A stretch of DNA of 64,000 nt from Desulfomonilia bacterium (GCA_050014195.1 JBEKDT010000001.1:32001-96000); one strand, 5' to 3'. Counted from the first letter of the stretch, positions 717 to 51,687 are shown. Translations and numbers: made by a program. Notes: generated by a model not told the origin, from the letters alone.

Positions 717-779
717 GATTACTTCGATAGATCATCGTTTTCAGTGTAACCTGAAAAGTAAATGTTCCTGGAGGTAATC
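717..779. repeat. 63-bp imperfect palindromic site, copy A
   Basis: GATTAC...TTTTCA-N8-TGAAAA...GTAATC; its reverse complement aligns without gaps to 45491-45553. Confidence 0.65.
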
Positions 780-830
780 TTTAAGCGTTGAGTTTTTGAG
801 GGAGTAATCTAAATTTAATACGTGCCGGCC

Positions 831-1493
831 TCAGTACGGCCGTTGTCCGAAGATCCTCGTGCCGATGCGGACCATGGTTGCCCCTTCCTCGATGGCAATA
901 TGATAGGAATCGCTCATGCCCATGGAGAGCACCTCCATGCTCACGTTCGGAATATCCAGTGCCTTTATCTCATCGAAGAGAGTCTTGGCCTGACGGAAAT
1001 ACGGCCTGAGTTCCTCGGGGTCTTCCACAAAGGGGCCCATGGTCATGAGCCCTTTCACAGAGATGTTCGGTAGGCCGCTTATCTGCCGGATCAGTCCGGG
1101 GACGGCTTCAGGCATGGCGCCGTGCTTCTGTGCTTCGCGCCCGATATTCACTTCGATGAGCACGGGCATGATCTTGCCGTGCTTGGCTGAATGCTGGTCG
1201 ATCAGGCCCGAGAGCTCCAAAGAGTCAACGGTCTCGATCATATCGAACAGCGGCACGATGTGCTTGACCTTGTTCTTCTGGATATGGCCGATAAAATGCC
1301 ATGCAGCCTTCTTGCCGATGGCTTCTATCATTTCCTTCGATTCCTGGAGATAGTTTTCACCCACGGCCGTGATGCCTGCGTCGATGGCCTCAAGGATCTC
1401 CTGGGCGTTCCGTGACTTGGCAGCCGCTACTATATTGATACCCTGGGGTATCTCCGAGCGCAATTCCAAGACATTGTCTCTGATCTGGCCCAT
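831..1493 (-). CDS. yggS: PLP homeostasis protein, YggS family
   Basis: AAAKS, GENYLQE, WHFIGHIQKNK, LSMGMS, VRIGT motifs. Confidence 0.95.
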   Translation of the reverse strand: MGQIRDNVLELRSEIPQGINIVAAAKSRNAQEILEAIDAGITAVGENYLQESKEMIEAIGKKAAWHFIGHIQKNKVKHIVPLFDMIETVDSLELSGLIDQHSAKHGKIMPVLIEVNIGREAQKHGAMPEAVPGLIRQISGLPNISVKGLMTMGPFVEDPEELRPYFRQAKTLFDEIKALDIPNVSMEVLSMGMSDSYHIAIEEGATMVRIGTRIFGQRPY

Positions 1494-1558
1494 GATTTTT
1501 TCCTATGCTTTGGGGGCAGTCGTTGTCAACGTGCAAAAACTTACTCAGTGATTGAGAG

Positions 1559-1587
1559 TTGACAGGCCTATAGTGCGATGTTACCTT
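1559..1587 (+). promoter_or_regulatory. Putative sigma-70 promoter of the nrpR-like gene
   Basis: TTGACA-N17-TACCTT with an extended TG. Confidence 0.4.
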
Positions 1588-1626
1588 AAACGGCAATAGG
1601 TTACCGATATTCCTTAGGAGATCATT

Positions 1627-2637
1627 ATGTTCGCCTATGATGAGATGGAACGGAAGAGCATCCTGATTTTGCGCATCCTCAACCAGGCCCAGCAGCCCCT
1701 CGGTGCGCGCATCATCGCCCGGAGGATGAAGGATTACGGGATCAACCTGAGCGAGCGGGCGGTGCGATACCACCTGCAGTTCATGGACCAGCGGGAGCTC
1801 ACCCGGTTCGTCGGCAGGAGGGACGGCAGGGTGATCACACCGAAGGGTGTCGAGGAGCTCCGCAATGCACGGGTACAGGATAAGGTGGGATACTGTATCT
1901 CCCGCATGGAAATCCTTGCCTACAAAACAACCTTCGACCCTACAGCCGGTAATGGCGTGCTCCCCATCAATGTCTCATTCTTCCCTGCCGAGAGCTTTAA
2001 AGAGGCGTTGAAGGGTATGAAGCCTGCATTTGAAAAGAACTTGTGCGTAAGCGAGCTTGTGGCGGTAGCCCCTGAGGACGCCTTCCTCGGGGATGTGCAT
2101 GTGCCCCAGGGGTGCATAGGCTTTGCCACGATATGCAGCATTGTACTATCCGGCGTTCTCCTAAAACGCGGCATCCCCCTGGAGTCCAAGTTCGGGGGTA
2201 TCCTCCAGGTCAGCGAACACAAGCCCATGCGTTTTGTGGACCTCATCCATTATTCCGGGACATCCCTGGATCCATCCGAAGCCTTCATCAGCGCCAGGAT
2301 GACCGCCGTGCGGGATGTTTTGAGACGGGGGGAAGGCAAGATCCTTGCGAACTTCTGTGAGGTTGCCGGTGTCTGCAGGGATGGTGTCGAAGAGGTCATG
2401 GAGCTCTTAAAGGGTGTGGGGATAAATGCCGTGATCATAAAGGGCAAGATGGGTGAGCCGGTCTGCCAGGTGAGCGTCGATGTGAACAAGATGGGCATGA
2501 TCCTGCTGGGCGGACTCAACCCGGTTGCAGCAGCAAGGGAGGCCGGAGCGGAAGAGACGAACCTCCCTATGTCCACGGTCATGGAATACAACGATCTCAG
2601 AAGATTCTCATCCGTGTATCGCGAGTATCTTGGGTGA
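1627..2637 (+). CDS. NrpR-family transcriptional regulator (wHTH plus a single NRD domain)
   Basis: N-terminal LGARIIA...SERAVRYHL HTH; TICSI, LDPSEAF and GGLNP motifs of NRD/DUF128. Confidence 0.85.
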   Translation: MFAYDEMERKSILILRILNQAQQPLGARIIARRMKDYGINLSERAVRYHLQFMDQRELTRFVGRRDGRVITPKGVEELRNARVQDKVGYCISRMEILAYKTTFDPTAGNGVLPINVSFFPAESFKEALKGMKPAFEKNLCVSELVAVAPEDAFLGDVHVPQGCIGFATICSIVLSGVLLKRGIPLESKFGGILQVSEHKPMRFVDLIHYSGTSLDPSEAFISARMTAVRDVLRRGEGKILANFCEVAGVCRDGVEEVMELLKGVGINAVIIKGKMGEPVCQVSVDVNKMGMILLGGLNPVAAAREAGAEETNLPMSTVMEYNDLRRFSSVYREYLG

Positions 2638-2682
2638 AGAACTGTTGCCCCGCGCAGCAAGCTTAGGCGGGATCATTAAAAG

Positions 2683-5061
2683 CTAACCCAGCTCTATCCT
2701 GGTCCTGCTGATGATCTCGTCCTTCACGGTGTCGGGCAACTCATCGAAATAGGCGCAGTAACCCGCCACCCTCACTACAATGCCCGGATACCTACCCGGG
2801 TGCGACCGGGCGTCCATGAGGACCTCGGGGTCCAGCACATTGAGCTGCATTTCCATGCCACCCTGGGCGAAGAATCCTTTTGTGAGTGCGGTTATGGTGT
2901 CCAGGGCCTTTTCCCCTTTCAGTGAGGGCATATCAAAGCGCATGTTCAGGGCATAGCCATTGGGAGATAGCCTCGAATCCACGGCGGCCACCGAGTTGAG
3001 CAGGGCCGTGGGGCCGTTTAAGTCCCGCCCGTTGCAGCACCCCATGCTTGCCGCAAAGGGCTCTCCCGCCTTTCTTCCGCTCGGCAGGGATGGTGTCCTT
3101 CTCCCGAACGCTACATGGGTCGTGGAGGAATAGAACCCCGGCACATAGGGGCCTCCCCTGGTGTTACGATATCGGGAAAGGGCATCATGGAAGATATGTA
3201 CCACGAGGTCGGCGTAGCGTTCAGGCTCGCCGAGGTCATTGCCGAATTTCCCGGCGGAAAGCAGCTCGGCCCTCAATTTCGCGTTGTCCTTGAAGTCTTG
3301 CCTCATGGCCTCGATCACCTGCGCCAGGGTGTATGACTTTTTTCTGAACACCACCTCTTCGATGGCGGCAAGCGAATCCGCCACATCCGCCACACCCACG
3401 CCCTGGATGCCGCTTGAATTGTACCTGGCGCCTCCTGCAGTCACATCCTTACCGCTCTTCAGGCATCCCTCCACAAGCATGGAAGAAAACGGGGTGGGGT
3501 GGAAGTCGCAATTGGCCTTCTCGATGATCCGGATGTCCCTGACCAGGCGTTTCACCATGAATTCCACCTGGGCCTTGAAGGCATCGATGATACCGTCCAT
3601 GGTCGTGAAGGTGGATGGATCGGCAGTTCTGGCCCCGGCCCTGAACCTATGATTCGGCCTCTTACCTTTGTTCAGTGCCAGGACCAGGCACAGGGGGAGG
3701 TTGAAGAGAGCGGCATCGGTCGAGCAGAAGCTCCTGCCGGGTATGGTCGGCTCCACGCAGCCCACCACGCCATAGTCGCGGGCATCTTCAAGGGGATAGC
3801 CATGGGAGATGAGCGATGCGATGGTAGCCTCATCGTTGAACAGGCCCGGCACACTGTTTCCTTTTCGGGCCACATCCAGGGTGCGCCGCACATATTTCTC
3901 GGGTGATGCGGCATGGATCCTGGCCATGTAGTTGGGGTCGCGCAGGCCCGCAAGCTCCATGACATCGAGGAAGAGGTAGGTCAGGTCGTTGACTGCATCC
4001 CTGCCGTCCCGGTCCATGCCTCCCACGGTGGCTGCCTGGGCCACCAGGTATCCGCCGTGGTATTCGCTCGTCCTGCTGGAGAGCAGGAACATGTGTTCGG
4101 TTGTCTTGGCAGAGAAGCACAGCAGCAGCTCCAGGGCCTTGTCCTTGTCTATCCTGCCTGTCTCGATGTCATTCTGGTAAAAAGGATAGAGGTACTGGTC
4201 GATACGACCGAAGGATACTGCAGAGTTGATTCCTTCAAGGCAGACAGCCATGTGGGTGAGCCACAGCGCCTGCAGGGCCTCATGGAGTGTCTCGGCGGGC
4301 TCCAGGGGCACCTTGTCGCAGATGTGTGCGATATCGAGCAGCTCCTGCCTTCTCGCTTGCAAGGGCTCCGTGGATGCGAGCCTATATGCCTCAAGGGAGA
4401 GCCTTTTTGCATATTCGGCCAGACCCTCGCAGGCGATCAGCGCCGCTGCATGGAGGTCGGACCTGGACTCCTCTAAAGTTTCCATGAAGCCCTTGATGCC
4501 GAGCCTTATCATGCTGCCGTAATCGGGCAGGAAATGGCCGATGCCCCCGCTCTCATTGATGAGGTAGAAGGTGGCGTTAAGCTGCTCCAGTACAAAACGC
4601 ATAAGCTTCGGGCTGTACCACTTGAATGCCCGTGAATTCATATTCCTGAAGTACCAATAGGGGATGACCTTAAAGAGGAGTTCCAGGCGCTCCTTCCAGG
4701 AAACCGGGTAAGGGTTTGTCTTTCTCCTGTTCATCCAGAGAAGCTCTTCGCTCATGACGACCCCGGACAGCTCCGGTTGAATGATAACCGATTTCCGGTG
4801 GCTGCCCACATTGCCGACGATGAGCTCGTCGTCGAATATCTTCACCGACTTATTCCGGAGCAGGTAACGCAGTGCCTTGGCCTTGCGCACCATCATAGAT
4901 TCTGTTGGATCGTCGTGCCTCTTGAAAAATTCCGTGATGAGCAGCGCTCGCTCGGTACAGAGGCGTACCGGCTGTGAGAGCAGGGCTTCCTTGATACGAG
5001 TGAAACGCCCGGCAGGGCTTTTATTGTCGTCGGGCCTCTTTTGTGCGGATTTGGCTCTCAT
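2683..5061 (-). CDS. Glycyl radical enzyme (PFL-like family), substrate unknown
   Basis: SFGRIDQYLYP, Cys loop GCVEP, Gly loop VRVAGY. Confidence 0.93.
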   Translation of the reverse strand: MRAKSAQKRPDDNKSPAGRFTRIKEALLSQPVRLCTERALLITEFFKRHDDPTESMMVRKAKALRYLLRNKSVKIFDDELIVGNVGSHRKSVIIQPELSGVVMSEELLWMNRRKTNPYPVSWKERLELLFKVIPYWYFRNMNSRAFKWYSPKLMRFVLEQLNATFYLINESGGIGHFLPDYGSMIRLGIKGFMETLEESRSDLHAAALIACEGLAEYAKRLSLEAYRLASTEPLQARRQELLDIAHICDKVPLEPAETLHEALQALWLTHMAVCLEGINSAVSFGRIDQYLYPFYQNDIETGRIDKDKALELLLCFSAKTTEHMFLLSSRTSEYHGGYLVAQAATVGGMDRDGRDAVNDLTYLFLDVMELAGLRDPNYMARIHAASPEKYVRRTLDVARKGNSVPGLFNDEATIASLISHGYPLEDARDYGVVGCVEPTIPGRSFCSTDAALFNLPLCLVLALNKGKRPNHRFRAGARTADPSTFTTMDGIIDAFKAQVEFMVKRLVRDIRIIEKANCDFHPTPFSSMLVEGCLKSGKDVTAGGARYNSSGIQGVGVADVADSLAAIEEVVFRKKSYTLAQVIEAMRQDFKDNAKLRAELLSAGKFGNDLGEPERYADLVVHIFHDALSRYRNTRGGPYVPGFYSSTTHVAFGRRTPSLPSGRKAGEPFAASMGCCNGRDLNGPTALLNSVAAVDSRLSPNGYALNMRFDMPSLKGEKALDTITALTKGFFAQGGMEMQLNVLDPEVLMDARSHPGRYPGIVVRVAGYCAYFDELPDTVKDEIISRTRIELG

Positions 5062-5096
5062 GCGGACTTCTCCTCCTTCATGGGGTCTTCTTTTAA

Positions 5097-5153
5097 GTAG
5101 GAGCGGCTTCAGCCGCGACCATTACATACCGATCGCGCCTGAAGGCGCTCCTA
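5097..5153. repeat. GTAG-family REP doublet
   Basis: GTAGGAGCGGCTTCAGCCGCGA ... TCGCGCCTGAAGGCGCTCCTAG; same units as the 30.2-kb array. Confidence 0.8.
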
Positions 5154-5164
5154 GAAAACCTGAC

Positions 5165-6013
5165 TCAATAATTCACTACGGGTTTAAACTCCTGTTCGGG
5201 GTAGATCTGGCCCGGCTTGGGCGGCATGGAATTGTATACCCAGTCGATGTCCACACATCCGAGTGTGATCCCCCGGTGCTTCTCAAACCCGGTGAACACA
5301 CCCCTTACCAGCACATCCTCCATGTCCATGGTCAGGCCGAACACGGCTACAACAGAGCCCTTATGTATCGCGTTCAATTCTTCCTTATATGCCAGCGGCG
5401 AAAATGCGAGTCGCGTACTGCCTGCTGCCTGGCAGCCGATCAAAGGGATGATCACCGGGTATGAGTCCTCACCGGCGTACGAGATAAACTTGATGGTGTC
5501 GAGCCTCTTGAACAGGCCCTCGGCCCAGGGCTTCAGGATGCGCTTTGAAAGCATCGGCCTGACGGCCGACCTTCCCGCCAGGGCCAGGACCGAACCGAGC
5601 CCGATCCGTACAAGCGGCAGGGATTCCTTGCCGTAAGTCTCAACGAGGTCCATATAGTGCACGGTATGGATGCCGAAGTAGGCATTGTAGCGGAACATGG
5701 GCTTCAAGTTGAACATCTCGTAGTCTTCGCCGTGGGCGGCCTTATGGGTATAGAGCGCCTTGCCGCGCCACAGGCTCTTGTCCATGGTCATGATGGCAAA
5801 GCCTGTCTTGGGATTGGTCTTCACGTGCTCCTTGCTCATGCCTTCTGAGAACTGGCCCCAGATGAGCTTGGTGGGGGTCTTTGCCTGCAGCGCCGTGATG
5901 AGGGTGACGTGGGGCAGGCCTTCGGGGTTTATCGTGGCGATCAATCCAACCTTTGCCTCGGGCTCAAACTGCTTCAGGTCTTCATCATCAAAACGCGTAT
6001 AGGTCTTTTTCAT
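5165..6013 (-). CDS. Pyridoxamine 5'-phosphate oxidase-like FMN-binding protein (probably two split-barrel domains)
   Basis: KVGLIATINPEGLPHVT N-terminal motif; second similar KFISY...YPVIIP segment. Confidence 0.75.
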   Translation of the reverse strand: MKKTYTRFDDEDLKQFEPEAKVGLIATINPEGLPHVTLITALQAKTPTKLIWGQFSEGMSKEHVKTNPKTGFAIMTMDKSLWRGKALYTHKAAHGEDYEMFNLKPMFRYNAYFGIHTVHYMDLVETYGKESLPLVRIGLGSVLALAGRSAVRPMLSKRILKPWAEGLFKRLDTIKFISYAGEDSYPVIIPLIGCQAAGSTRLAFSPLAYKEELNAIHKGSVVAVFGLTMDMEDVLVRGVFTGFEKHRGITLGCVDIDWVYNSMPPKPGQIYPEQEFKPVVNY

Positions 6014-6059
6014 GCATGCCCTCCCCTTTTATTCTCGGTGACTCTTCCTCTATCCACCG

Positions 6060-6129
6060 TGTCATTCCTACGAAAGCTTCGAATCCAGGAATATCAAAGC
6101 ATTCTGAGCCCATGCTCCCGGGGATGACA
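6060..6129. repeat. Degenerate GTCATTCC...GAATCC palindromic intergenic repeat
   Basis: TGTCATTCC...GAATCCAG ... GGGATGACA inverted ends. Confidence 0.4.
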
Positions 6130-6145
6130 GTCCTTTGCTCCTTGA

Positions 6146-7189
6146 TCATCCGATCACCCCTTGCTTGGTGACGCCCAATGAGGCTTTTTCATCTGCATAC
6201 TCATACGGATGGACCTTGCTCATGGGCCCGCTCAGATGGACAATTTCAGGGTCAACACCCGAACTCCTTGCACTCTTTGCAAGGCGCTCGGCCTCATCCT
6301 GGTCAAGGAGCGCCGTCTTCCTGAACTGCCAGTCAATCCCAAGCCCGTCATACTTATTGATGCACAGGTTGTTGAAGGTGCACAGCTCCCACCTGCTCAC
6401 GGCCGGACTCAAGTTTTTCTTGATAAATGCACCGATCCCCTTGAGGTTGTCCGGTGTGGCGGTGTATCCCGGAATCAAAGGAGTGCGCACCCAGAGATCC
6501 CCGGGCATGGAGCTGTCCTCCATGGATTTGCCGATCTTGACAAGGTTTTCGAGGATCTTCTCAGGGGAGACCCCGGTGAATTCTTTATGCCTCTTGGGGT
6601 CAATCTCCTTGAGATCGTAGAGGACCAGGTCCGTATACGGCAGGAGCGACTTGATGGTCTCCCACGAACACTGCCCGCAGGTATCAAGGGCGGTATAGAC
6701 GCCCTTGAGCTTGAAGGCCGCGAGGAGCTCTTGTGTGAATTCGCCCTGCAGGGTGGGCTCGCCGCCCGAGAGGGTCACCCCGCCGCCTGACTTCTGAAAA
6801 TACACCTTATCCTTGAGCACCTCATGGAGGAGACCATCCACCTCGCAGACCTCTCCATAGACCTCCATGGCCGTAGACGGGCAGGCCTGCACGCACGCGG
6901 TGCAGGAATCGCATTTCGATCGGTCGATGGTTATACCGCTGCCCGCCAGCGCGAGAACCCCTTTCGTGCAAGCCTCGATACAGCTGCGGCAGCCGATGCA
7001 CCTGGACTTCACCCAGTGCACCTGGAGCCTCTTTGAGATGCTCTCCGGATTGTGGCACCAGACGCACTTCAACGGGCAGCCCTTGAAGAATATAGTGCTC
7101 CTGATGCCCGGCCCGTCTTCCGTGGACATGCGCTGGATCCTGAGGATGGTACCCTTGTGCTTATCTTCGTTGCCTTTCATGGTGATCAC
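6146..7189 (-). CDS. Glycyl-radical enzyme activating enzyme (radical SAM with ferredoxin insert)
   Basis: EDGPGIR, GCPLKCVWCHNPE (CxxxCxxC), two CxxCxxCxxxC motifs, SGGEP. Confidence 0.95.
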   Translation of the reverse strand: MITMKGNEDKHKGTILRIQRMSTEDGPGIRSTIFFKGCPLKCVWCHNPESISKRLQVHWVKSRCIGCRSCIEACTKGVLALAGSGITIDRSKCDSCTACVQACPSTAMEVYGEVCEVDGLLHEVLKDKVYFQKSGGGVTLSGGEPTLQGEFTQELLAAFKLKGVYTALDTCGQCSWETIKSLLPYTDLVLYDLKEIDPKRHKEFTGVSPEKILENLVKIGKSMEDSSMPGDLWVRTPLIPGYTATPDNLKGIGAFIKKNLSPAVSRWELCTFNNLCINKYDGLGIDWQFRKTALLDQDEAERLAKSARSSGVDPEIVHLSGPMSKVHPYEYADEKASLGVTKQGVIG

Positions 7190-7203
7190 TTCTCCTTGTG
7201 CCC

Positions 7204-9717
7204 CTATATCGACTCATGGCTTATCCTTGCTATGACCTCGTCCTGCAACTCTCTCCCGATACTCGTGAAATAGGCGTTGTACCCCGTGATCCGCACCAGC
7301 AGCGAGCGGTAGTCCTCGGGCCTCTTCTGCGCGTCGCGCAGCATGTCGGCATCCAGCATGTTGATCTGCAGCGCGCTGCCTCCGTTTTCCACATAGCCCC
7401 TTAAGAATGCCTTGAACTTGGAGCGGTGCTCGGGGTTCTGCAGCAGCGACGGGTTGATGGTGATGGTGTGGCTCGCGCCGTTGGGCAGGCAGTTGTAATA
7501 CCCCTTATAGTCGCCCTGGCCCTGGGGGTCTTTGCCGCCCATGGCCTTGCCTACGGAGTTCGCATTGGCTGTGGGGCCGTTGATGTCCGCCCCGTTGCTC
7601 GGGCAGATGGCGTTTGACAGGAACCTCCCCTTGGGCCTGCCGTCCGGACTCGCCGGCAGGATGAAGCCGTCGCCCACCCAGTAGTTCCAACTCAGCATGC
7701 CCGGCCGGAACCGGCGGTTTGTGGAGACGGTCTTGTACTTCCATGTCTCCTCGCTCCACAGCGCCATGACCGCATGTGCCAGGGCGTCGGCCTTGTCGTC
7801 GTCGCAGCCGTATTTCGGGGCCTTGAACCTGGCCTTGGCCTGCAGCTTTTCATGGCCTCCCCAGTTTGCCTTCAGGGCCCCGATGAGCTCGGCCATGGTG
7901 CATTCCTTGTTGTCGAACACCAGGTTCTTGACTGCCAGCAGCGAGTCCACCGTGGTGGCGAACGTTACCGCCTCCAGCGTGGTGAAGCCCAGCTCAGAGC
8001 CGCCCTCGGTGATGTCGAGCCCCTTTTCCGCACATCCCCTTACCAGGCACGAGAGGTACGGCGTGGGACAGAACCGGGCCCTGATGGATTCGGACTGCTC
8101 ATAGAGCTCGGCACATTTCTTCACGATGAAGCGGGTCTGCTCGGCATACGCCCCCCAGAACTGCTCCCAGGATGCAAATGTCGCTGCATCGCCTGTCCTG
8201 GGTCCGGCCTGCGACACCTTCTCCTTCTTGCCCGTAATGGGGTCGATGAAATCGAAGAAGTCCTTCCCGTTATTCAGGGCCAGCTCAACGGCCTTCAAGA
8301 GGTTGAGGTTGTTGTCCACCGTGCCCGAGCGGTCGTTGCCCTGCATGGTGTTCTCCAGGCAGCCCACGGGAGCATAGTCGTGCACGTTGTTCTCGTTGAT
8401 CAGGTGCGTAACGTTTCCCCTCTTTGCCTCGCGCAGCATCCCGGCCATGGACCGCTCGTCGAAATTCAGCAGAAAAGGCGCGCCCTGGCTCACCGAGATC
8501 ATGTCCACCACCTTGTCCAGCAGCTCATCCGGGGTCCCCCGGTGCAGGCGCACATTGGGCTTGGGCTCTAAAATGGGCGTCATCTCGTCGATGACCTCCA
8601 GCATGGCGAAGGTAAGGTCATTGGTCATATCCTTGCCGCCCGCACCCACGCCGGAGAGCGTGATGAGCTGGCCGTAACCGGCGGTGATGCCGTTGAAGCC
8701 CACGCGGATCATGGCGTCGTACACCGTGTTGGCATGCACCCAGAAGCATTTCAGGATCTCCTTGCCGAACTCAGAGTCCATGCCCTGCTCTATCGAATAC
8801 TGCCAGTAGGGCAGCAAATACTGATCGATGCGTCCGAAGGACACTCCCGGTCCGGGGTAATTCTCGTCGCTCATGATGAGCATGTGCGTGAGCCACAGGG
8901 CCTGCACGGCTTCCCAGAAGGTTGTTGCAGGCTCCCAGGGGACCTTCTTCAGGTTTGCGGCCATCTGGTTAAGCTCTGCCTTTCGGCCCGCATCCTTTTC
9001 CGATGCGGCAAGCTTCCCGCACAGGTCGGCATACTTTGCAGCCAGGTCCCTTGCCATGGTGGAGGCGGTCATCATGGCCTTCAGCTGGGCGCCTTTTCTG
9101 CCCTTCTTGTCATTCCCGGCTAGGGCCTTGTATTTCTTTTCCAGGTCTTCATGGAGGCCCTTCCAGCCGATCTTGAGCGCACGCTCGTATCCGGGGATGA
9201 GGTGGCCGCTCGTGGCACCCGAGTTGCCGTATCCGTGGTCGTGGAACCACTTCATGGATGCGCGGGCCCCCTTCTTGCCGTATATGAGCCTGTCGCGCTC
9301 TTTTGCCTCTTTCTTTGTCCAACACTTGGACGTCTGCAGGTTGAAGCGGCCGCCCGCAATCAGGTCTCCGGGCAGGATCTCCTGGGGCACATAGTTCACC
9401 ATCACCTCCTTGATGAACCAGGCCTTTCGTTCAACCAGGCTCCAGGTCCAGAAGTCCGGGTGCAGCTTAACGGGCCTGGCAGCCTGCTGCATGGATGAGC
9501 GGAAGGTCTGCATGAACGGGTACGTCTCGGGCACGATGTAGAAGGTCATCTCGTCGAACTGCACGTCCCAGGGCGTGCCTGTCGTCCAGGCGGTGAACTC
9601 GTTGTTCCAGGCGCGCTCCACGCCCTTGTAGTAGTAGTCCCGCAGCCAGGTTATACGCGGTGAGAGGTTCTTCGGTTCCTTGATCTTCGAAACGCTAAGT
9701 GCCGCCTGTGCGCTCAT
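7204..9717 (-). CDS. Glycyl radical enzyme (PFL-like family), substrate unknown
   Basis: SFGRIDQYL, Cys loop GCLE, Gly loop VRITGY. Confidence 0.93.
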   Translation of the reverse strand: MSAQAALSVSKIKEPKNLSPRITWLRDYYYKGVERAWNNEFTAWTTGTPWDVQFDEMTFYIVPETYPFMQTFRSSMQQAARPVKLHPDFWTWSLVERKAWFIKEVMVNYVPQEILPGDLIAGGRFNLQTSKCWTKKEAKERDRLIYGKKGARASMKWFHDHGYGNSGATSGHLIPGYERALKIGWKGLHEDLEKKYKALAGNDKKGRKGAQLKAMMTASTMARDLAAKYADLCGKLAASEKDAGRKAELNQMAANLKKVPWEPATTFWEAVQALWLTHMLIMSDENYPGPGVSFGRIDQYLLPYWQYSIEQGMDSEFGKEILKCFWVHANTVYDAMIRVGFNGITAGYGQLITLSGVGAGGKDMTNDLTFAMLEVIDEMTPILEPKPNVRLHRGTPDELLDKVVDMISVSQGAPFLLNFDERSMAGMLREAKRGNVTHLINENNVHDYAPVGCLENTMQGNDRSGTVDNNLNLLKAVELALNNGKDFFDFIDPITGKKEKVSQAGPRTGDAATFASWEQFWGAYAEQTRFIVKKCAELYEQSESIRARFCPTPYLSCLVRGCAEKGLDITEGGSELGFTTLEAVTFATTVDSLLAVKNLVFDNKECTMAELIGALKANWGGHEKLQAKARFKAPKYGCDDDKADALAHAVMALWSEETWKYKTVSTNRRFRPGMLSWNYWVGDGFILPASPDGRPKGRFLSNAICPSNGADINGPTANANSVGKAMGGKDPQGQGDYKGYYNCLPNGASHTITINPSLLQNPEHRSKFKAFLRGYVENGGSALQINMLDADMLRDAQKRPEDYRSLLVRITGYNAYFTSIGRELQDEVIARISHESI

Positions 9718-10454: not shown

Positions 10455-10471
10455 TGAACCCCCTTTTATGT

Positions 10472-10492
10472 GGCTGGTGGTAAGGCCAGCTG
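10472..10492. promoter_or_regulatory. Candidate FadR-type operator
   Basis: GCTGG-tggtaagg-CCAGC inverted repeat just upstream of gntR. Confidence 0.35.
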
Positions 10493-10600
10493 ACAATATA
10501 CACCTGAAATGAGGGGGAGGCAAGGAGGAAAAGTACCTTTGATTCTTTATTATGATGTTTAAGTATCGAGCGGAGACTGGAATCAGGCGCTATCCAGTCT

Positions 10601-10664
10601 GATCTCTTATTTCGAGATCATTGGTTTGGGAGCCTTCCGAACGTGCCAATTTATTGAAGGAATC
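10601..10664. repeat. ~63-bp imperfect palindromic site, copy B
   Basis: TTCGAGATCAT...N8...GCCAATTTATTGAAGGAATC; closely resembles 11342-11403. Confidence 0.5.
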
Positions 10665-10760
10665 TACAGAAATGTATATGGTTAAGATAGTATATATTCA
10701 GAATAAATCAATGTATATAAGGTGGTAATTAATAATTCCACACGTTAAAGGGGGAACAAA

Positions 10761-11339: not shown

Positions 11340-11341
11340 TT

Positions 11342-11403
11342 GATTGATGTTCGAGATCATCAGTTTTAAGACATTGCAAAGGCGCCAATCTATCGAAGAG
11401 ATC
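11342..11403. repeat. ~63-bp imperfect palindromic site, copy C
   Basis: GATTGATGTTCGAGATCATCAGTTTTA-N8-CAAAGGCGCCAATCTATCGAAGAGATC. Confidence 0.55.
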
Positions 11404-13418: not shown

Positions 13419-13462
13419 GAAAATATTCCGCTTTAGCTAATCCGGGTGTTACCCAATATGAT

Positions 13463-14347: not shown

Positions 14348-14413
14348 GCGGTTGCATGGCAATTCACCAGGCAATGGGACCGGTAAAGGACCTGGGACAT
14401 TCATAAAAATGGA

Positions 14414-43580: not shown

Positions 43581-43657
<77 letters not shown>

Positions 43658-45025: not shown

Positions 45026-45227
45026 AAAACCAATTTTCCTGCCTTCCCCCTTTCACAAACGACTGAAGGGGAAGGGAGGAACGACCGGAGAAAGGAAAGC
45101 CTGAAAGGCTCACCATATAAGAAAGTGGTCAAAGAATTTGACCATAGAAGACACCCGGAGCGTTGCAAGCAGCATGACAACATGGTCACATGTTGGCGTG
45201 CTGCTTTTTAAGCTAGCGGAGGGGGAC
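45026..45227 (-). repeat. Structured conserved-upstream element, copy 1 (before the integrase)
   Basis: AAGCAGCA...TTGTCATGCTGCTTGCAACGCT...GTGAAAGGGG...GGAAAA. Confidence 0.8.
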
Positions 45228-45341: not shown

Positions 45342-45449
45342 GAGACTGTTGAAAAAGTCCGAATCACAAGATCTTGGCATATTTATGTGTATGAAAATCA
45401 ATCAGTTAAAAATCTATAAATGTGAATTTTGAGGTTTTTCAACAGTCTC
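45342..45449. mobile_element. 108-bp MITE with 15-bp TIRs
   Basis: GAGACTGTTGAAAAA ... TTTTTCAACAGTCTC flanked by TGC direct repeats. Confidence 0.8.
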
Positions 45450-45490
45450 TGCCATACTATGGATTTTGATATGGGATGTCCCAGAGTATA

Positions 45491-45553
45491 GATTACATCC
45501 GAGAACAGCTACTTTTCATGCCGTCTTGAAAGCGATCATTTATCGAAGATATC
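45491..45553. repeat. 63-bp imperfect palindromic site, copy E
   Basis: GATTACATCCGAGAACAGCTACTTTTCA-N8-TGAAAGCGATCATTTATCGAAGATATC. Confidence 0.65.
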
Positions 45554-45734
45554 AACAGTTTGATTGAATAAAGAAAAGAAAATCAATGTGATCTTTATCA
45601 AAAAATAATATCAATCAGTCTCTGCTTTTATCTTTTTGTCTAATATTGGTATTAACCACCCCAAGAAAAACTGCGGGGTTCCTAGCTATGGTCATCTCAG
45701 GAACTAGACAAAATAATTCCTTTTGTCTAGAGTT

Positions 45735-46523
45735 CTACAATTTTGGGATGATTACTAACTGGTTGGGTTCGCACCTTGCAGATTCTATTTGATCTTTCAT
45801 TTTTTTCAAGGTGTCTTGCCCAAAAAAACCTTCCTCGTAATGATTATGATATTGAATCAACTCAAGAGGTGTCCGTAGTCTGACTTTTTTGGTTTCTGTA
45901 CCTTTCCTCAAGCGCTTAAAATACTCATATGCCATCAGGTCGGCTACCTGCAATCCTACATGTTCTTCGGCCTTAGCAGAAGTGCAAGTGCCGAGGCGGT
46001 GTCGATATGAAAATGTCGGGTTATTTGCCAACCACTTGAAAAACTCGGGCGCTTGCTTATCAAATTTAGACCCTCCATCCAGGACAACGTCAAAATGCCA
46101 ATCGGCGGGAAAATCACTTTCATCTTCCATGTGCCTTGCAATCATGGCGATACAACTCTTAAAACACGCATACCAAGGATGTCCGAGCTTTTCACGGCCA
46201 ACTTCATTTATAATCCCTCGATATTCATCGGCACGCATTCCGCAATTGTAGGCGACCATTCTCTTCTTCTGACAATTGATAGCCTCTAGAAGGGCAGCGC
46301 TGTAGCAAACCTTCTTCTCTTCATCCCATCCGCTATATTCACCCCTTGTACCATTCAGCGGTTGCGCGTGGAAACGAGAAACACCAAAGCGACAATTGAT
46401 CGAATTCCAGTCCTTTTCTACCTCATTCCACGTCGGCTGATCTGAGAAAAAACCGCTTATGGCAAGAGCGTTTGGTGGTTCTCTACCATCGTAACTCTCA
46501 TCACAATAAAAAAGAAATTTCAT
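45735..46523 (-). CDS. DUF3800 family protein
   Basis: N-terminal YCDES and C-terminal LQVADLMAY. Confidence 0.8.
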   Translation of the reverse strand: MKFLFYCDESYDGREPPNALAISGFFSDQPTWNEVEKDWNSINCRFGVSRFHAQPLNGTRGEYSGWDEEKKVCYSAALLEAINCQKKRMVAYNCGMRADEYRGIINEVGREKLGHPWYACFKSCIAMIARHMEDESDFPADWHFDVVLDGGSKFDKQAPEFFKWLANNPTFSYRHRLGTCTSAKAEEHVGLQVADLMAYEYFKRLRKGTETKKVRLRTPLELIQYHNHYEEGFFGQDTLKKMKDQIESARCEPNQLVIIPKL

Positions 46524-46688
46524 ACATCCATTATGCTTGTGAAGCAGTTGATAAGTCATCAAATAATTGTTAAAGCACCAGAAGAACCGCATTGCATTCA
46601 TATCACCCCGGCGCGCAAGCTCCCGAAACACCTCCGTAAAGGTGTGTGTGTCATGCGTGGTTTGGTGTCTGCCTCGAACCGCTTGTTA

Positions 46689-47846
46689 TCAATCCTCTTT
46701 GACATTCAATTTAATATTCTCGGCTACAGTAAATGGTTGATCAAGGCCCAACAGAGTTAAGACCATTGTGCTTCCTGCGCCAAATGTTCCTTCTAATGCC
46801 CACATATAACTTCCAATAAGGAGATCTTCGATTCCATCATCATTCAGGTCAGCCCTAAGGATTTCATACAAATAAAGTCCCATGTAGCCATAATGAAGTG
46901 TCAATGTCAGAGGCGAAGAAGAAATAATTTTTATTTCCCCTTGAGTAATCAAATCAGAAATACCTACACCCTCAGCTTGCAAACGCTTCAATTCCCTATC
47001 GCCGCTTAGATCAGGTAACAGTGTAACCGGTAGGAGGTTAAAATTCGAGATACTTGCATTTAAATCCGAAATAAACCTTTTTCTAGGAACCTTCGCCTGG
47101 GCCAGAGCAACGACAAGAGAATAGACGTTCTTGAAGAATGTCTCCTCTTTAATATCATAAGTAGAACGTGCATGGTAGCCATCACGAATAGCTTCGACCC
47201 ATTCACGACAAGTATAAACTTTAATGCTTTCTTCATCAGACCAGGTTCCTCTTGCCATAGTCAAATAATCAAGCCCTTGAAACCTTGGTAAAATCGGTCG
47301 GTCATATAAGGAGTCAATATCAGTCGATGAAATAAATCCTTTTAGTTCGGAATCAACAAATGGAAGGGCTGTAAGGACTTCGAACATGTTCTGAGATCCA
47401 GAATAACCAACAATTAGCGAGTTAAGCTCATCACGTGAAATACGACCTTCATCCAAGGCAACTTGTAAAAGGATCATAAATTTATCTTTTTGTATTTGTT
47501 CCTTAATTTCAAGTTCAATTTTACATGCCTTGTTGAATTTACTCTCAGCGATAGACAAAAAGTGAATAGCCCTGCTTTTCGGTAGAATCTGACTTTTCTT
47601 TTGGAGATTACAGTGCCGGTGAGATGGAACAAGGTTAAGCAGGCTATCTACATCAAATTCGTTATCAAGCCCATATTCATCCAACAATTTTGCCAATTCC
47701 TCTGGTTGTTCCTTCAGGTAAGAGGGGATAACATGATCTATATCAAGGTCAGCAAAAGTAACAAACTCTGTACAATAGATACATCGATGGTCGTGTGCAT
47801 GCCAAATAGCAGCTCTTCTGGACGTTGGTAATGCTTTCCGGGCCAT
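46689..47846 (-). CDS. HNH endonuclease domain protein (integron cassette)
   Basis: CIYC...IDHVIP...NLVPSHRHCN. Confidence 0.85.
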   Translation of the reverse strand: MARKALPTSRRAAIWHAHDHRCIYCTEFVTFADLDIDHVIPSYLKEQPEELAKLLDEYGLDNEFDVDSLLNLVPSHRHCNLQKKSQILPKSRAIHFLSIAESKFNKACKIELEIKEQIQKDKFMILLQVALDEGRISRDELNSLIVGYSGSQNMFEVLTALPFVDSELKGFISSTDIDSLYDRPILPRFQGLDYLTMARGTWSDEESIKVYTCREWVEAIRDGYHARSTYDIKEETFFKNVYSLVVALAQAKVPRKRFISDLNASISNFNLLPVTLLPDLSGDRELKRLQAEGVGISDLITQGEIKIISSSPLTLTLHYGYMGLYLYEILRADLNDDGIEDLLIGSYMWALEGTFGAGSTMVLTLLGLDQPFTVAENIKLNVKED

Positions 47847-47865
47847 GCTACTCACCTGACTGGCT

Positions 47866-47927
47866 CGATAACATGAAGGCACAGGAAGCCGGATTTATCG
47901 ACGATTCGGTGCACCGCTTGGTTCTGC
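47866..47927 (-). other. Integron attC site
   Basis: Minus strand GCAGAAC-caagcggtgcaccg...ctgtgccttcat-GTTATCG, 62 bp, directly after the upstream gene's stop. Confidence 0.75.
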
Positions 47928-47937
47928 AGTTCCATGT

Positions 47938-49428
47938 TCACGTAGAGTTCTGGCCTTTATCCGAAAGGCGATCCTTGATCCAAAAGTAATGCATGAAAAC
48001 ATAGTCCCATACAACCCCCACTAATTCCCTAACAGGCTCACCGCACCCCAGCTCCATCGGAACAGATTTGGTCTCAAGAATACTGTGGAGTCTCTGCAAT
48101 GCATCAAGTTCTGGGAAATGATCGATCGTTCGCTCTGATGTGGAAAATCGCCTAAGTTGTTTTATGAGTTCCTGCGAGGCCAACTCTTTTTCCTCCAGAA
48201 GAGCTTTTGCCGCCAAGCGGGTGGCACCGATCATCGTCTCGACTTGCAGGCTACTCTCTGGAACATACTTGTATTGCTTAATAGCTGCCACGATTGGCCC
48301 AATAAGCTCTAAACGTTCACTCGTTCCAGTCTTCTCGTCCGATAGTATTATACAAATCTTCTGAAAACGCTCTTGATTTGTAATCAGTTTATCCTCTAGG
48401 CCAGCATTCTCGGCCAATTCCGCACCAGTCAGAAGCGTGCCAAGGCAAAGCTGAAATATCTGGCGACCGTATGAAAGGAGTGACTGATATAATGGACCTT
48501 CGCTTTTCTTTTGTGAATCCGTGGCGACAAAGCGCAACTGCCGGGCATGGCCTTCGTGCACGATTCGGGATCGGGCGTCATAGAATTGCCGTGCCCAGAT
48601 GGCTAATCGTGGAATTCTTCCCAATAGCAACGAAATAGCATCGGTCAAACGATCAGTCTTTTCATCTATGGGCAAGCTTAACAACGCTTCAAAAGCAATA
48701 GAAAGATTTACAATTGCCGCGGGCTGATCATTTGCTTCGTTGTTGGCTTCATTGAACCAGCGGAGCGCAGTAAAGATGCGCAAAGATGATGATGTTTCAG
48801 GTTTTTCAAGTAATTTTCTCAGTAATCTGTAGTCTATCCTTCCATCGGCAAGACAAGCGAGGTCAAAGCTCAAGTCCTGTGAATGATTAAGAGTCAGCTG
48901 GGGCTTTGGGCCATAAAGGCGTGAACCCTTAGCCACCCAAAAATGATGCTTAAAATTGTATAATCCCGCATAACCCTCGACTTGATCATGTTTGTCAGCT
49001 TCCAGATTAGATTCAGAATCAATCATATCTACATGAAAATCAGGACGAACGAGAGATGCTGGCACCTTGCATGGCGTGAGGATTGCTATGCTGGCGTGCT
49101 CCGATGAAAGAAAGAGATCGCCGAACTCGTGACGTGGCAAAGCATAGCAGTATGCAATGACGGCTTGAACCTTTGTGAGATGCTGCACATCAACAGGCGA
49201 ATGGCTTAGATCCACAAAGGGTATAACCGCATAGGACGCAGATTTTATGCGGAGGTTGTCCTGCAAGAAAAGCATTTCCGAAATTTCGCGCACACATGCG
49301 GCTTGCACGAGGGAAAGACCGTCTACATCGTCAGTCGAACGAAATGACACCCCCCCGATAGTCACCTTGTCTCTTGTTTTGAGAAATGGAAAGACAGCGA
49401 AGCTGTAAATTTTGTCAAGTGTTTCCAT
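47938..49428 (-). CDS. HEPN/ApeA-like domain protein (integron cassette)
   Basis: IAFEALL ... FYDARSRIVHEG (RxxxxH). Confidence 0.7.
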   Translation of the reverse strand: METLDKIYSFAVFPFLKTRDKVTIGGVSFRSTDDVDGLSLVQAACVREISEMLFLQDNLRIKSASYAVIPFVDLSHSPVDVQHLTKVQAVIAYCYALPRHEFGDLFLSSEHASIAILTPCKVPASLVRPDFHVDMIDSESNLEADKHDQVEGYAGLYNFKHHFWVAKGSRLYGPKPQLTLNHSQDLSFDLACLADGRIDYRLLRKLLEKPETSSSLRIFTALRWFNEANNEANDQPAAIVNLSIAFEALLSLPIDEKTDRLTDAISLLLGRIPRLAIWARQFYDARSRIVHEGHARQLRFVATDSQKKSEGPLYQSLLSYGRQIFQLCLGTLLTGAELAENAGLEDKLITNQERFQKICIILSDEKTGTSERLELIGPIVAAIKQYKYVPESSLQVETMIGATRLAAKALLEEKELASQELIKQLRRFSTSERTIDHFPELDALQRLHSILETKSVPMELGCGEPVRELVGVVWDYVFMHYFWIKDRLSDKGQNST

Positions 49429-49441
49429 CCCTCTCCTTACC

Positions 49442-49545
49442 GCCGAACGTACTATATTGCACGTTTGCTTCACATACTAATTAGCCGAAGCAATTTTGCA
49501 CTATATCCGGATATGAAATGTAAGGCAATATGCTGTTAAATTACT
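49442..49545 (-). promoter_or_regulatory. Pc/attI-like leader of the cassette array
   Basis: TTGCCT-N17-TATAGT then GTTCGGC core site; homologous to 53490-53595. Confidence 0.5.
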
Positions 49546-49602
49546 TGAACCATATCTTTCGTGCCATTATCGCTACTCCAAGCATGGGGCCTGAAAAGTA
49601 AA

Positions 49603-49665
49603 GATATCTTTAGCAGATCATCGGTTTTTGGATATACTCAAACACGATCATTTATCGAAGAAATC
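49603..49665. repeat. 63-bp imperfect palindromic site, copy F
   Basis: GATATCTTTAGCAGATCATCGGTTTTTG-N8-CAAACACGATCATTTATCGAAGAAATC. Confidence 0.65.
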
Positions 49666-49884
49666 TCTGTTTCTGCATGTGAGCGAATTGATCTTATAGA
49701 TCTATGGAATCATACTTGTTTAGTGTTCGGGTTATGATGATTAAAAATAATTCAACAACCATTAAAAAATAACAAAAATATTAGAAACTTATACATGATT
49801 CATACATGTTCCTGTTCTTTATTTTTAGAATATGAATATTATTTTTTATTTAAATTTTATTTAAATTTAATATAAGTACTTACT

Positions 49885-51339
49885 ATGCCAATCCTTGAAC
49901 ATATCGATATACTGAGAAAAGGGGTTGATGTTTGGAATCAGTGGAGGAAAGATAATCCAACGATAATACCTGATCTTAGTGGGGCGGATCTCACTACAAA
50001 TATTGTCTGTAATGCTGAACGAGAAGAATTAATTAACTATCTTATCGGTGGCTCACGATTTTATAAACATGGAATGGAAGAATTATCAAAAGACGTCAAT
50101 AAGTTATTTTCGAAGCCCAGACTTTATATTAAAATTCATCTGTTATTCATCCATATTGCTGATTGGCGCTTACGCTTTTTCCGTAGAATTAAGGGGAAGC
50201 TATTCCCGTTTTTAACCGAGAAAGAACCAAGTGTAATTAAATACTCTTCATATTTGCGGGGTATTAATCTAAGCCATTGTAACCTTAATAATGCAAATCT
50301 TGAAGCGGTATATATGCCTGAAGCTAACCTAGAAAAAGCCAAGTGTGAAAAAGCAAATTTTAACAATACCGATCTGAGATATTCGAACTTTAGCAACGCC
50401 AGTCTTTATCAAGCCTGCTTTACTAACTCTGATCTAGAGAATGCACAACTTATTCGCTCAAATCTATCCGAAGCAAATTTTCATAGAGCTATACTTAGGG
50501 GATCAATCCTGAATGATATAATAGCCTATGGAGTTGATTTCTCCGGAGCGGATCTTGGTTATTCAAATTGCCATCCGATTGATTTTCAAAAAATAGACCC
50601 TTACACCTTCCGTTCCCAAATAACTCGTATGAATCATGCTTATGTTAATGGCGCTAACTTCAACTATACGAATATGCGAGATATCGAAATGAATCGAGCT
50701 AGTCTGAACGGCGCTAAGTTTGTTAAAGCGGATCTTTCAAATGCTCAATTATCAGGCTCATTTCTCGCAAAGACTGATCTTTCAGGAGCGATTTTAGAAG
50801 GAGCAAATCTGGAAAAAACAAATGTCTTTGATGTGAAGTTTAATCGTTTAGGTAAATTTCGTGGAATTCGTTTAGACAGATGTTATGGAAGTGCTCGGTT
50901 TGAAAGATTTGCTAAAGATCAAAATTATTTAGAAGAGCTTAGGAATGAAGGTCACATAGGTAGAATATCATATAATATATGGTTAATCCTTGCTGATTGT
51001 GGCAGGACTCCTTGGCGTTGGATCATGTGGTCTACTCTAGCAATATTGTTTTTTGGTTCTCTATATGCCAACTACGAACTTCCTACCTGGTTAGCTTGGA
51101 TTCCAGATTACGGGAAAAAAGTCATTGCTGACATGTGTCCTCATCTCAAATATGTCAACCGAACCCCATTTACACCTTATTATTTTAGTATAGTCACTTT
51201 TACGACTCTAGGGTTTGGAGATGTTGTTCCGATTAATATGGCTGGGGAAATATGTGTATCACTTGAAGTAATTATTGGATATGTGATGTTGGGCGGTCTT
51301 ATATCTATTTTGGCATCAATTATTGCGCGGCGAAGTTAA
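49885..51339 (+). CDS. Pentapeptide-repeat protein with C-terminal 2TM potassium-channel-like domain
   Basis: GVDVWNQWR, many A-N/D-L/F repeats, YFSIVTFTTLGFGD. Confidence 0.88.
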   Translation: MPILEHIDILRKGVDVWNQWRKDNPTIIPDLSGADLTTNIVCNAEREELINYLIGGSRFYKHGMEELSKDVNKLFSKPRLYIKIHLLFIHIADWRLRFFRRIKGKLFPFLTEKEPSVIKYSSYLRGINLSHCNLNNANLEAVYMPEANLEKAKCEKANFNNTDLRYSNFSNASLYQACFTNSDLENAQLIRSNLSEANFHRAILRGSILNDIIAYGVDFSGADLGYSNCHPIDFQKIDPYTFRSQITRMNHAYVNGANFNYTNMRDIEMNRASLNGAKFVKADLSNAQLSGSFLAKTDLSGAILEGANLEKTNVFDVKFNRLGKFRGIRLDRCYGSARFERFAKDQNYLEELRNEGHIGRISYNIWLILADCGRTPWRWIMWSTLAILFFGSLYANYELPTWLAWIPDYGKKVIADMCPHLKYVNRTPFTPYYFSIVTFTTLGFGDVVPINMAGEICVSLEVIIGYVMLGGLISILASIIARRS

Positions 51340-51687
51340 TTTATAGAGTTGTCATTCACATCATAATATTCTTCTTAAGTTGGGTTATTATACAACGCTC
51401 TATTTCAACCACTTAGACAGAACATTATTGATTCTTTCTAGCTGAGTAGAACCTTAAAATATATCCAAAAACAATGATCTCCTAATGAGATTACTATACA
51501 AAAATTCTTCTCCATAAGAAGTCCATATCCAGGCATCCGATATGTATACAAACCTTATCGATAGAAACCGTTTGTGCCATAGTAGGCGAGATGATCACCT
51601 TGGCTGATTATCATATGATTTAAAACAAGATGTTCAATTTTCGGCTTTTCTCAAAACCGTGACGAATATCGAAGTGATCATCATAGT

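Follow-up and report, generated by a model that had tools for sequence, protein, structure and literature searches.

A family of modular repeats punctuates arrays of accessory genes in the genome of an uncultured peat bacterium, and the organization of these arrays supports the tentative proposal, to which we give a probability of roughly 0.45, that the repeat is a cassette-accretion junction site served by a candidate trans-acting enzyme. The family came to light in a stretch of 64,000 nt, here called the window, from Desulfomonilia bacterium GCA_050014195.1 (JBEKDT010000001.1:32001-96000, which is C1:32001-96000 of the host genome G000, with 4,215,580 bases in 29 contigs). The host belongs to an uncultured Syntrophales-type ('Deltaproteobacteria') clade of metagenome-assembled genomes from peat, and the highest identity of its LepA to that of any named record is 91%. 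The observations that carry the proposal are the kinship and modular anatomy of the copies, their placement between genes, their arrays of uniform direction, the breakpoints found at array ends, an empty site in relatives, and the re-use of cargo genes in different arrays.

Copy number and distribution of the repeat

The six sites that a reading of the window made from its sequence only had grouped together do form a related family: all of them align with one another, and several are paired as direct or inverted repeats. An nhmmer profile seeded with these six good copies and then iterated over G000 recovered the family throughout the genome, beyond the background of a reversed genome. The first pass gave 54 matches at E<=0.01 and the iterated profile 102-104, which correspond to 102 distinct loci; the control, G000 reversed but not complemented, gave no match at E<=0.01 and one at E<=10. 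An extended profile of 181 positions, which also covers the sequence upstream of the 63-66-bp unit, gave 132 matches at E<=1e-3, or 122 once overlaps were removed. Copies in the 4.2-Mb genome number roughly 100-130, and the window holds 7 of the 102 loci against about 1.5 expected from 102 copies per 4.216 Mb.

A sequence-only covariance model, R1, was run over the window with filters off. The copies at 45439-45566, 49538-49675 and 51561-51690 match R1 by construction, because they are rows of its seed alignment; two of the three were also seeds of the nhmmer profile, and the third was recovered by it. The weak seventh site suspected at 51551-51609 is real, being the upstream module of the element at 51561-51690, in which a 3' module at 51620-51682 is the best-conserved part. 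The core stretch at 14-43 kb, where no site had been noticed, is empty for R1 as well, with nothing at E<=0.1 in 13620-45438 and a single match at E 0.81.

R1 was also used to scan relatives, with 76 candidates scored in each genome, so that the highest counts are floors. In 14 other genomes of the same genus the counts were 0, 0, 1, 1, 6, 8, 8, 12, 12, 25, at least 54, at least 72, at least 74 and at least 76, which places the family in 12 of the 14. Three of 10 genomes from other genera of the same family carry 2-9 copies, and none of the 16 genomes sampled from the next family has any copy, a sample that does not demonstrate absence.

Anatomy of the repeat

The site had been described as a palindrome of about 63 bp. 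Inverted arms are indeed present (pair I8, 37 nt, 78% complementary), but a simple palindrome does not describe the whole element: the 63-66-bp unit is merely the 3' module of a longer, oriented mosaic repeat whose conservation runs on upstream. The repeat ranges in length from 63 to about 215 bp and occurs in three forms. The short form, of 63-66 bp, consists of two inverted arms of about 27 nt around 8-10 variable central bases, and the same unit makes up the 3' module of the medium form (about 135 bp) and of the long form (about 170-215 bp). Each upstream module starts with a common box of about 9 nt, and the same box, inverted, also terminates the element. The boxes of the long form recur at a spacing of roughly 50-60 nt, and some apparent head-to-head pairs of short units are the two ends of a single long form. 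The left arm is degenerate in many copies, identity between copies is about 70-90% over 60-150 bp, and a few copies whose cores differ greatly carry an extra module of about 155 nt on the 3' side. Since the extended profile matches one strand only, the element has an orientation.

The repeat does not fold. With DNA parameters, the 102 copies have a mean folding free energy of -5 kcal/mol and a median z-score of -0.45, that is, no stable single-copy hairpin. RNAalifold found no consensus pair in 61 near-full copies on either strand, nor in 23 longer copies on the plus strand, and at the gathering threshold the sole Rfam match in the window was the tRNA, with nothing at the repeat copies. A hairpin or structured RNA was rejected on the strength of these three empty results. 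The lack of both a stable fold and covariation indicates that the repeat most likely acts as double-stranded DNA, and it is presumably bound by a protein.

Genomic placement and same-direction arrays

The repeat is confined to intergenic DNA: all 102 copies are intergenic by crude gene calls covering 81% of G000, and with a permissive set of open reading frames (ORFs) the midpoint lies inside an ORF for 4 of 122 copies. Among the 118 copies with two neighbouring genes, 42 lie between convergent genes, where about 15% of all intergenic regions are found, the two co-directional classes hold 32 and 22, and the remaining 22 separate divergent genes. The orientation of the repeat is not tied to that of the flanking genes. 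The surroundings are AT-rich, with a median GC content of 45.6% within 2 kb on either side of a copy against 51.0% in random windows.

Copies are strongly clustered. Of the 96 copies with a 3' module, 76 have a neighbour no further than 10 kb away, whereas 200 random placements gave 34 on average and never more than 48. The copies are distributed as 20 singles, 12 pairs, 6 triples, 5 quadruples, one cluster of six and one of eight, with a median gap of 1.9 kb. Of neighbouring copies no more than 3 kb apart, 28 of 29 pairs share a direction; widening the limit to 5 kb gives 34 of 36, and to 10 kb 43 of 48, the opposite-direction pairs among these 48 being 2 convergent and 3 divergent. The relatives follow the same rule: a hand count over the 150 listed of 441 rows found 29 pairs within 10 kb in the same direction and 5 in opposite directions, and one relative has nine same-direction copies across 16 kb (G002:C9). 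General recombination would delete direct repeats, from which we infer that the excess of direct pairs must stem from whatever process builds the arrays.

Such arrays occupy at least 25 loci in G000 and lie beside unrelated core genes. The genes between copies are mostly single, ordinary genes in both orientations and up to 1206 aa long. They include genes for Usp, several PEP-CTERM proteins, HIT, PilZ, an ice-binding-like protein, a methyl-accepting chemotaxis protein and a hydrolase, as well as RNase II, a nucleotidyltransferase, a lipid A acyltransferase, a response regulator with its kinase, and a PAS kinase of 1206 aa.

Breakpoints at array ends and an empty site

The copies do lie at junctions of accessory modules, and five arrays were compared with two close relatives, G003 and G004, which are 90-95% identical to G000 over common DNA. 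Copies coincide with synteny breakpoints at the five arrays compared, and at four of the five the flank-proximal copy is conserved together with its core flank on the 5' side while the DNA on the 3' side is different. At the window copy 709-782(-), homology with G003 and G004 spans the YggS-type gene and the whole element and ends at 714-717, its 3' end; the DNA left of it sits elsewhere in both relatives. At 10602-10672(+), G003 is collinear through the GntR gene and has a copy at the same locus, 93% identical and with about 175 bp more upstream module, and homology ends at 10665. Beyond this point the 3.7 kb of G000 gives way in G003 to about 11 kb of other DNA, and collinearity is back at 14383. 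At the array on contig C12, the G003 match reaches into the 3' part of the first copy (92199-92282) and is taken up again after 14.3 kb, so that one copy plus 1.1 kb in G003 stands against an eight-copy array in G000. On C5 the right flank and the last copy, 41450-41545(-), are common to G003 and the array past the 3' end of that copy is not. On C21, 3.85 kb with three copies is replaced in G003.

The more distant relatives have no copy at the YggS locus (7 loci scanned) or at the GntR locus (8 loci scanned). In G007, G002 and G008 the YggS-type gene directly adjoins the orthologue of C1:28650-29381, with 10 nt between the two stop codons in G007 and G002. Since the flanking genes are adjacent in these three genomes, the 3.4 kb that separates them in G000 (C1:29382-32830) is an insertion, made up of cargo between a half copy and a full copy, both facing inward. 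These three distant relatives have an empty allele, and the hybrid site expected in such an allele is not there, the genes being 10 nt apart in G007 and G002. A target duplication was sought in this sole pair of empty and filled alleles, which comes from genomes about 77% identical and in which the 10-nt spacer is not recognisable in the filled allele.

Public sequencing runs were also consulted. Contigs from four runs, over window positions 1-20000, have no joint at any copy among 15 of 21 joints, although contigs cannot show rare circles. One contig from a strain about 94.5% identical fits the window from 720 onward and continues past that end in unlike sequence. Near-identical DNA occurs in 24 public runs from 23 studies (16 of them possibly the source).

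Re-use of cargo and the position of the junction

The same cargo units recur in different arrays. A unit on C12 (92289-92930, an ORF plus a long-form copy) is found in three other contexts in G003 at 91-95% identity, and C19:32270-32915 recurs on G003:C17 at 92% identity, between copies different from those in G000. A 4.1-kb histidine-kinase unit of C5 is found in G004:C12 at 96.8% identity with different neighbours: there it follows a unit that in G000 is located on C4, in an array attached to core DNA of G000 C18.

These cases allow the junctions to be viewed at base level. On the upstream side of the kinase unit, a 7-nt block that lies about 22 nt from the 3' end of the element marks the change: G000 and G004 agree fully from there onward and are unlike just before it. 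The same position, about 22 nt from the 3' end, also bounds the C12 unit, the end of the C12 array and the C19 unit, and two window junctions are compatible with a break there. [quoted passage not shown] The sequence-only reading had placed the exchange in the central 8 bases, as in loxP or dif. The junctions contradict this, for every one read at base level keeps both arms and the centre together and breaks either in the last 20-25 bp or so of the right arm or at the 5' terminal box; to judge from these alignments, the central 8 bases are clearly not the exchange point. A scan for 'empty' junctions, with two boxes and no core, was discarded: it gave 46, 73 and 50 matches at gaps of 0-6, 7-14 and 15-22 nt, where mononucleotide shuffles gave 11, 15 and 18, and the excess is unspecific.

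Enzymes, integrons and insertion sequences

G000 has 16 matches to the Phage_integrase domain, 14 of them above the curated cut-off and none an integron integrase. The integrase that lies just past the array on C7 was considered as the enzyme and rejected, as it belongs to a duplicated 1.2-kb unit confined to G000. This unit, essentially one tyrosine-recombinase gene, occurs twice, at C7:69927-71142 and C7:130613-131839, with 97.5% identity between the two, and a third, broken copy is found at C1:121982-122284. There are two Y1 (PF01797) matches, at C1:92082-92438 and C5:220358-220681, the latter with another inverted repeat on its flanks. No match of the profile adjoins either gene, and a link to the transposases associated with repetitive extragenic palindromic (REP) sequences, known as REP-associated tyrosine transposases (RAYTs), was rejected on this ground.

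Canonical integron integrases (IntI) above the TIGR02249 cut-off are present in 8 of 15 genus genomes (G007, G002, G009, G012, G008, G004, G013 and G003). Their presence does not track copy number: G012 has IntI and no copies, G009 has IntI and one copy, and G000 has no IntI and at least 76 copies by R1. There are no R1 matches in 84.6 kb around the IntI genes of G007, G002, G009, G012, G003 and G008; all five R1 matches fall at a seventh locus, beside a 49-residue IntI fragment. In G007 the integrase at C12:115401-116339 is followed by GC-rich, attC-looking repeats, spaced by about 0.6-1.3 kb, to about 126 kb, and at the integron locus of G002 no GC-rich attC-like array stands out. An integron link was rejected, because G000 lacks IntI, the repeat is absent around six IntI genes of relatives, and the attC-like repeats are unrelated to it.

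Insertion sequences (ISs) do find the repeat. On G003:C17 three identical 1,828-bp elements of IS1182/IS5 type have each entered a different copy at one and the same position, and all three have the same 3-nt flanking repeat; such an element was rejected as the parent of the repeat, since it is an insertion into the repeat and has unrelated ends of its own. An IS110-family (DEDD) element lies within a copy on G002:C9 (83.7-85.4 kb), at about the same position as the IS1182-like insertions, and a solo IS110-family end abuts a copy in G000 (C5:35859-36127). Sequence related to the IS110 family is present in G000 at this place and at C3:5530-6183 and C7:139276-139527. The end, of about 270 nt, matches at least 10 loci of relatives, nine of them within about 0.7 kb of a Transposase_20 match. 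All five genomes with at least 54 copies have IS110-family genes, as does one of the ten genomes that have no more than 25; for IS1182-like genes the figures are four of five repeat-rich and two of ten repeat-poor genomes. This pattern is expected if the repeat is the landing site of these elements, and it also makes the DEDD recombinase, of 347 aa, a candidate.

How the arrays might be built

In the proposed mechanism, a resident copy would stay joined by its 5' side to a core gene and act as a seed. Accessory units, mostly of a single gene, would be added on its 3' side, each addition leaving one further same-direction copy so that the array grows, and units would be exchanged between arrays and between genomes. 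The exchange point would lie in or near the terminal 20-25 bp or so of the right arm, and there would be another, defined less sharply, at the 5' terminal box. The joints would be made by a dedicated enzyme acting in trans, which would be neither an integron integrase nor encoded beside the arrays. The sequence-only reading is partly supported: in its family and its placement at module junctions, with breakpoints, an empty allele and recurrent cargo in agreement, but not in its central crossover, its simple palindrome and its expectation of a co-occurring recombinase. A bolder version, which we regard as doubtful, is that of a second, non-integron cassette system, with an oriented double-stranded site of 63-215 bp and a trans-acting enzyme that inserts, excises and shuffles single-gene units at 25 or more loci; the IS110-family DEDD recombinase would be a candidate for that enzyme.

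Several results weigh against cassette accretion. No co-occurring recombinase was identified in enzyme-family searches of G000 and the genus, none lies among the genes between copies in the arrays inspected, and none was found beside the arrays examined in G000; the integrase just past the C7 array has no orthologue in the other 14 genus genomes, repeat-rich ones included. In G000 the best match to the integron integrase model TIGR02249 reaches 82.7 bits against a cut-off of 265. There is no rve-type transposase in G000, which also led to the rejection of a Tn7-like or rve-type parent. The junctions pose difficulties of their own. The terminal boxes are family consensus, so that alignments run through them and the crossover is not placeable to the base, and the second class of junction, at the 5' box, means that a single crossover point does not fit all cases. 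On C21 the G003 homology ends 19 nt short of the first copy, at a place where G003 lacks one. The distal ends of the C12 and C5 arrays have no significant copy; inward-facing arms were sought at distal array ends, and none was significant besides a control half copy, which closes one array (that of the 3.4-kb insert at the YggS locus). Finally, 20 of 96 copies are solitary, one copy splits a response-regulator gene from its kinase gene, much as a bacterial interspersed mosaic element (BIME) does inside an operon, and both the spread of copy number within the genus, from 0 to at least 76, and the targeting by two IS families are typical of selfish REP-like repeats.

These last points belong to the main rival, a passive mosaic repeat like a BIME or REP, or like the Neisseria intergenic mosaic elements (NIMEs), which, as a selfish or structural element, would build up wherever insertions do no harm (AT-rich accessory DNA, 3' ends of genes) and would provide portable homology for general recombination and landing pads for ISs with no dedicated machinery. 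Such a repeat is a possible explanation, albeit a doubtful one. It would account for the strictly intergenic placement with its enrichment between convergent genes, the AT-rich habitat (45.6% against 51% GC), the mosaic and modular build, the highly variable copy number, the use of one position by two IS families, the copy between the genes of a two-component pair, and the failure to identify an enzyme. What it does not predict is direction: random insertion would give 1:1, whereas neighbours agree in 34 of 36 pairs within 5 kb and in 29 of the 34 pairs listed for the relatives. Homologous recombination removes direct repeats and does not create them, and copies at about 70-90% identity are probably too divergent to be good RecA substrates. 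Furthermore, the repeat has no stable single-copy hairpin, unlike a REP, neither Y1 gene is flanked by it, and REPs alternate in BIMEs (PMC2817692), unlike these same-direction copies.

The other explanations do worse. If the repeat were a family of transposon ends or miniature inverted-repeat transposable elements, the arms of about 27 bp would be terminal inverted repeats and cargo between inverted copies a composite transposon. Terminal inverted repeats are present, short and long forms differ by internal length, and inverted copies do bracket cargo (window 11343(+)/13452(-), C3:50976(+)/52284(-) and the 3.4-kb insert); the element is also missing at orthologous sites of more distant relatives. 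This explanation is nevertheless unlikely, because 43 of 48 pairs within 10 kb are direct and the bracketing, convergent arrangement makes up merely 2 of 48, the arm tips face the bracketed cargo and so are the wrong way round for a composite transposon, no parent element with the same arms was found in the genus examined (the IS1182-like ends are unrelated), G000 has no rve-type transposase, and no target duplication is definable. A binding site for a regulator or nucleoid protein that silences foreign genes, with no part in rearrangement, would suit an element that behaves as double-stranded DNA, repeats its boxes at about 50-60 nt in the long form and lies beside AT-rich foreign genes, but it is more improbable still: copies are not tied to any set position or orientation with respect to promoters or gene starts, and such a site leaves the same-direction arrays, the breakpoints and the cargo re-use unexplained. 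Least credible of all is the original idea of a loxP- or dif-like tyrosine-recombinase core site with exchange in the 8 unconserved central bases. Two inverted arms around a variable centre of 8-10 nt and the 16 Phage_integrase-domain matches speak for it. Against it, arms and centre stay with the core flank at two window junctions and on C12 and C5 (93% identity at 10605-10665), the break lies at the outer end, the oriented element reaches far upstream of the 'left arm', and that arm is often degenerate.

Features of the window

The copies of the window and their neighbours are collected in the table, together with the IS1182-like elements of G003. The product of the ATPase gene at 11583-13418 has a weak match to the retron-associated PtuA model (71.5 bits against a cut-off of 500). 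To the left of 709-782, positions 1-343 and 376-662 are each multi-copy in G000 and relatives at 81-95% identity, which shows that the DNA there is a patchwork of other repeats.

Table. Repeat copies, neighbouring genes and related features (window coordinates unless a contig is named).
Feature	Position	Strand	Extent first noted	Details
Inserted variable segment, part	1-708			belongs to C1:29382-32830, starting 2.6 kb before the window
Repeat, short form	709-782	-	717-779	R1 E 1e-5; 5' side faces YggS-type gene 831-1493
GntR/FCD regulator gene	9714-10523	-		conserved core flank of the array starting at 10602
Repeat, short form, flank-proximal	10602-10672	+	10601-10664	R1 E 5e-6
Variable region between conserved flanks	10666-14382			from comparison with G003
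Cargo: flavodoxin-like-fold (Flavodoxin_2 / FMN_red) reductase gene	10761-11339	+		family match
Repeat, short form	11343-11410	+	11342-11403	R1 E 2e-9; starts 4 nt past the preceding stop codon
Cargo: AAA_21/AAA_15 ATPase, candidate defence gene	11583-13418	+
Two back-to-back copies, 5' sides overlapping	13452-13619			13452-13516(-) and 13497-13619(+)
Repeat	13452-13516	-	13463-13524	R1 E 7e-8
Repeat	13497-13619	+		R1 E 4e-14
Repeat, medium form	45439-45566	+	45491-45553	extent first noted is the 3' module
Cargo: DUF3800, HNH and 511-aa gene without family match	45735-49473	-
Repeat, medium form	49538-49675	+	49603-49665	extent first noted is the 3' module
Cargo: pentapeptide-repeat / ion-channel gene	49885-51339	+
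Repeat, medium form	51561-51690	+		3' module 51620-51682
IS1182-like elements	G003:C17:43781-45608, 55.3-57.2 kb, 67.9-69.9 kb			502-aa DDE transposase; own 17-nt inverted ends

A tRNA-Met gene at 43581-43657 is followed by an island that reaches to about 63500. It carries a 499-aa ORF without family match, DUF3800, HNH, ArdC and DUF4942 genes, a gene for a 1737-aa AAA_11/AAA_12 helicase with a topoisomerase zinc ribbon, and an IS200-type Y1 transposase gene at 60037-60468. A further repeat family connects 45033-45181 with 59233-62774.

Two other kinds of repeat are present in the window. An unrelated family of about 200-400 bp has members at 14383-14795, 17615-17809 and 35918-36140 and at least 20 copies in G000, and two inverted copies of it bracket 3.2 kb of the window. 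In contigs of three of four public runs, 14498 is joined to 17751 on the opposite strand, and similar places are joined likewise; such joints may reflect inversion of the 3.2-kb segment or ambiguity of the assemblies at this repeat. The 87 bp at 5072-5158 contain a GC-rich hairpin repeat (arm 5097-5119) and are missing in G003 and in a contig of run X24; the arm recurs in 115-nt tandem repeats at 30191-30467. By these comparisons, 5072-5158 is an insertion/deletion polymorphism of a REP-like element.

Implications and comparison with known systems

If a dedicated enzyme builds these arrays, they would constitute a gene-capture platform apart from integrons, with a double-stranded site, many platforms per genome and ordinary full-size genes as cargo, in an abundant, uncultured anaerobe of peat and wetland whose genus also carries canonical integrons. 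If true, the old NIME hypothesis, in which intergenic repeat arrays are recombinase sites that promote the exchange of neighbouring genes, would gain a concrete example open to testing. Even if passive, the repeat can usefully mark where accessory genes join in this clade, and it is a natural multi-copy landing site for two IS families. Among the literature matches listed, no paper links Syntrophales with a repeat, and a search on same-direction intergenic repeat arrays gave none.

The repeat is not an attC site, a REP with a RAYT or a lox/dif-type core by the features that define each, and the sequence-only reading was right that its layout resembles neither attC nor dif. The pdif site has 28 bp with a 6-bp centre, and alternates in orientation around modules that are served by a recombinase in trans. 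Like pdif, the present repeat has inverted arms and borders single-gene modules; compared by layout, it differs in being longer, mosaic and same-direction. REPs are GC-rich stem-loops found inside operons and at the 3' ends of genes, and are targets of ISs. With REPs and BIMEs, which are abundant and mosaic with REPs alternating in orientation (PMC2817692), the repeat shares its more than 100 copies, its strictly extragenic and mosaic character, its placement in operons and at 3' ends, and its targeting by ISs; unlike them, its copies do not fold, point the same way and have no associated RAYT. Islands of the tycheposon type, in which elements accrete in tandem beside a tRNA seed, are a related system (bioRxiv 10.1101/2020.12.28.424599). 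They differ in that the seed in G000 is a dispersed repeat beside many core genes, not a tRNA, and in that no integrase-bearing element lies at the proximal ends.

Two systems come closer. [quoted passage not shown] Unlike them, the repeat has no folded hairpin or pairing covariation, G000 has no IntI and the repeat is absent around six IntI genes of relatives, cargo genes lie in both orientations and reach 1206 aa, and the arrays occupy at least 25 loci. NIMEs (PMC1797815) consist of 20-bp dRS3 repeats and RS modules, with short inverted repeats of 6 bp around a variable centre flanking modules of 50-150 bp. With NIMEs and minimal mobile elements, the repeat shares intergenic arrays, variable neighbouring genes, units that differ between strains at syntenic sites, and a role as integration target. 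It differs from NIMEs in having arms of about 27 bp rather than 6 bp, in belonging to an unrelated sequence family with hosts in a different phylum, and in the whole genes that lie between its same-direction copies, where NIME repeats are described as back-to-back. The likeness to NIMEs would thus be one of working, not of membership, and by analogy the repeat appears to work most like a NIME and an integron, being neither.

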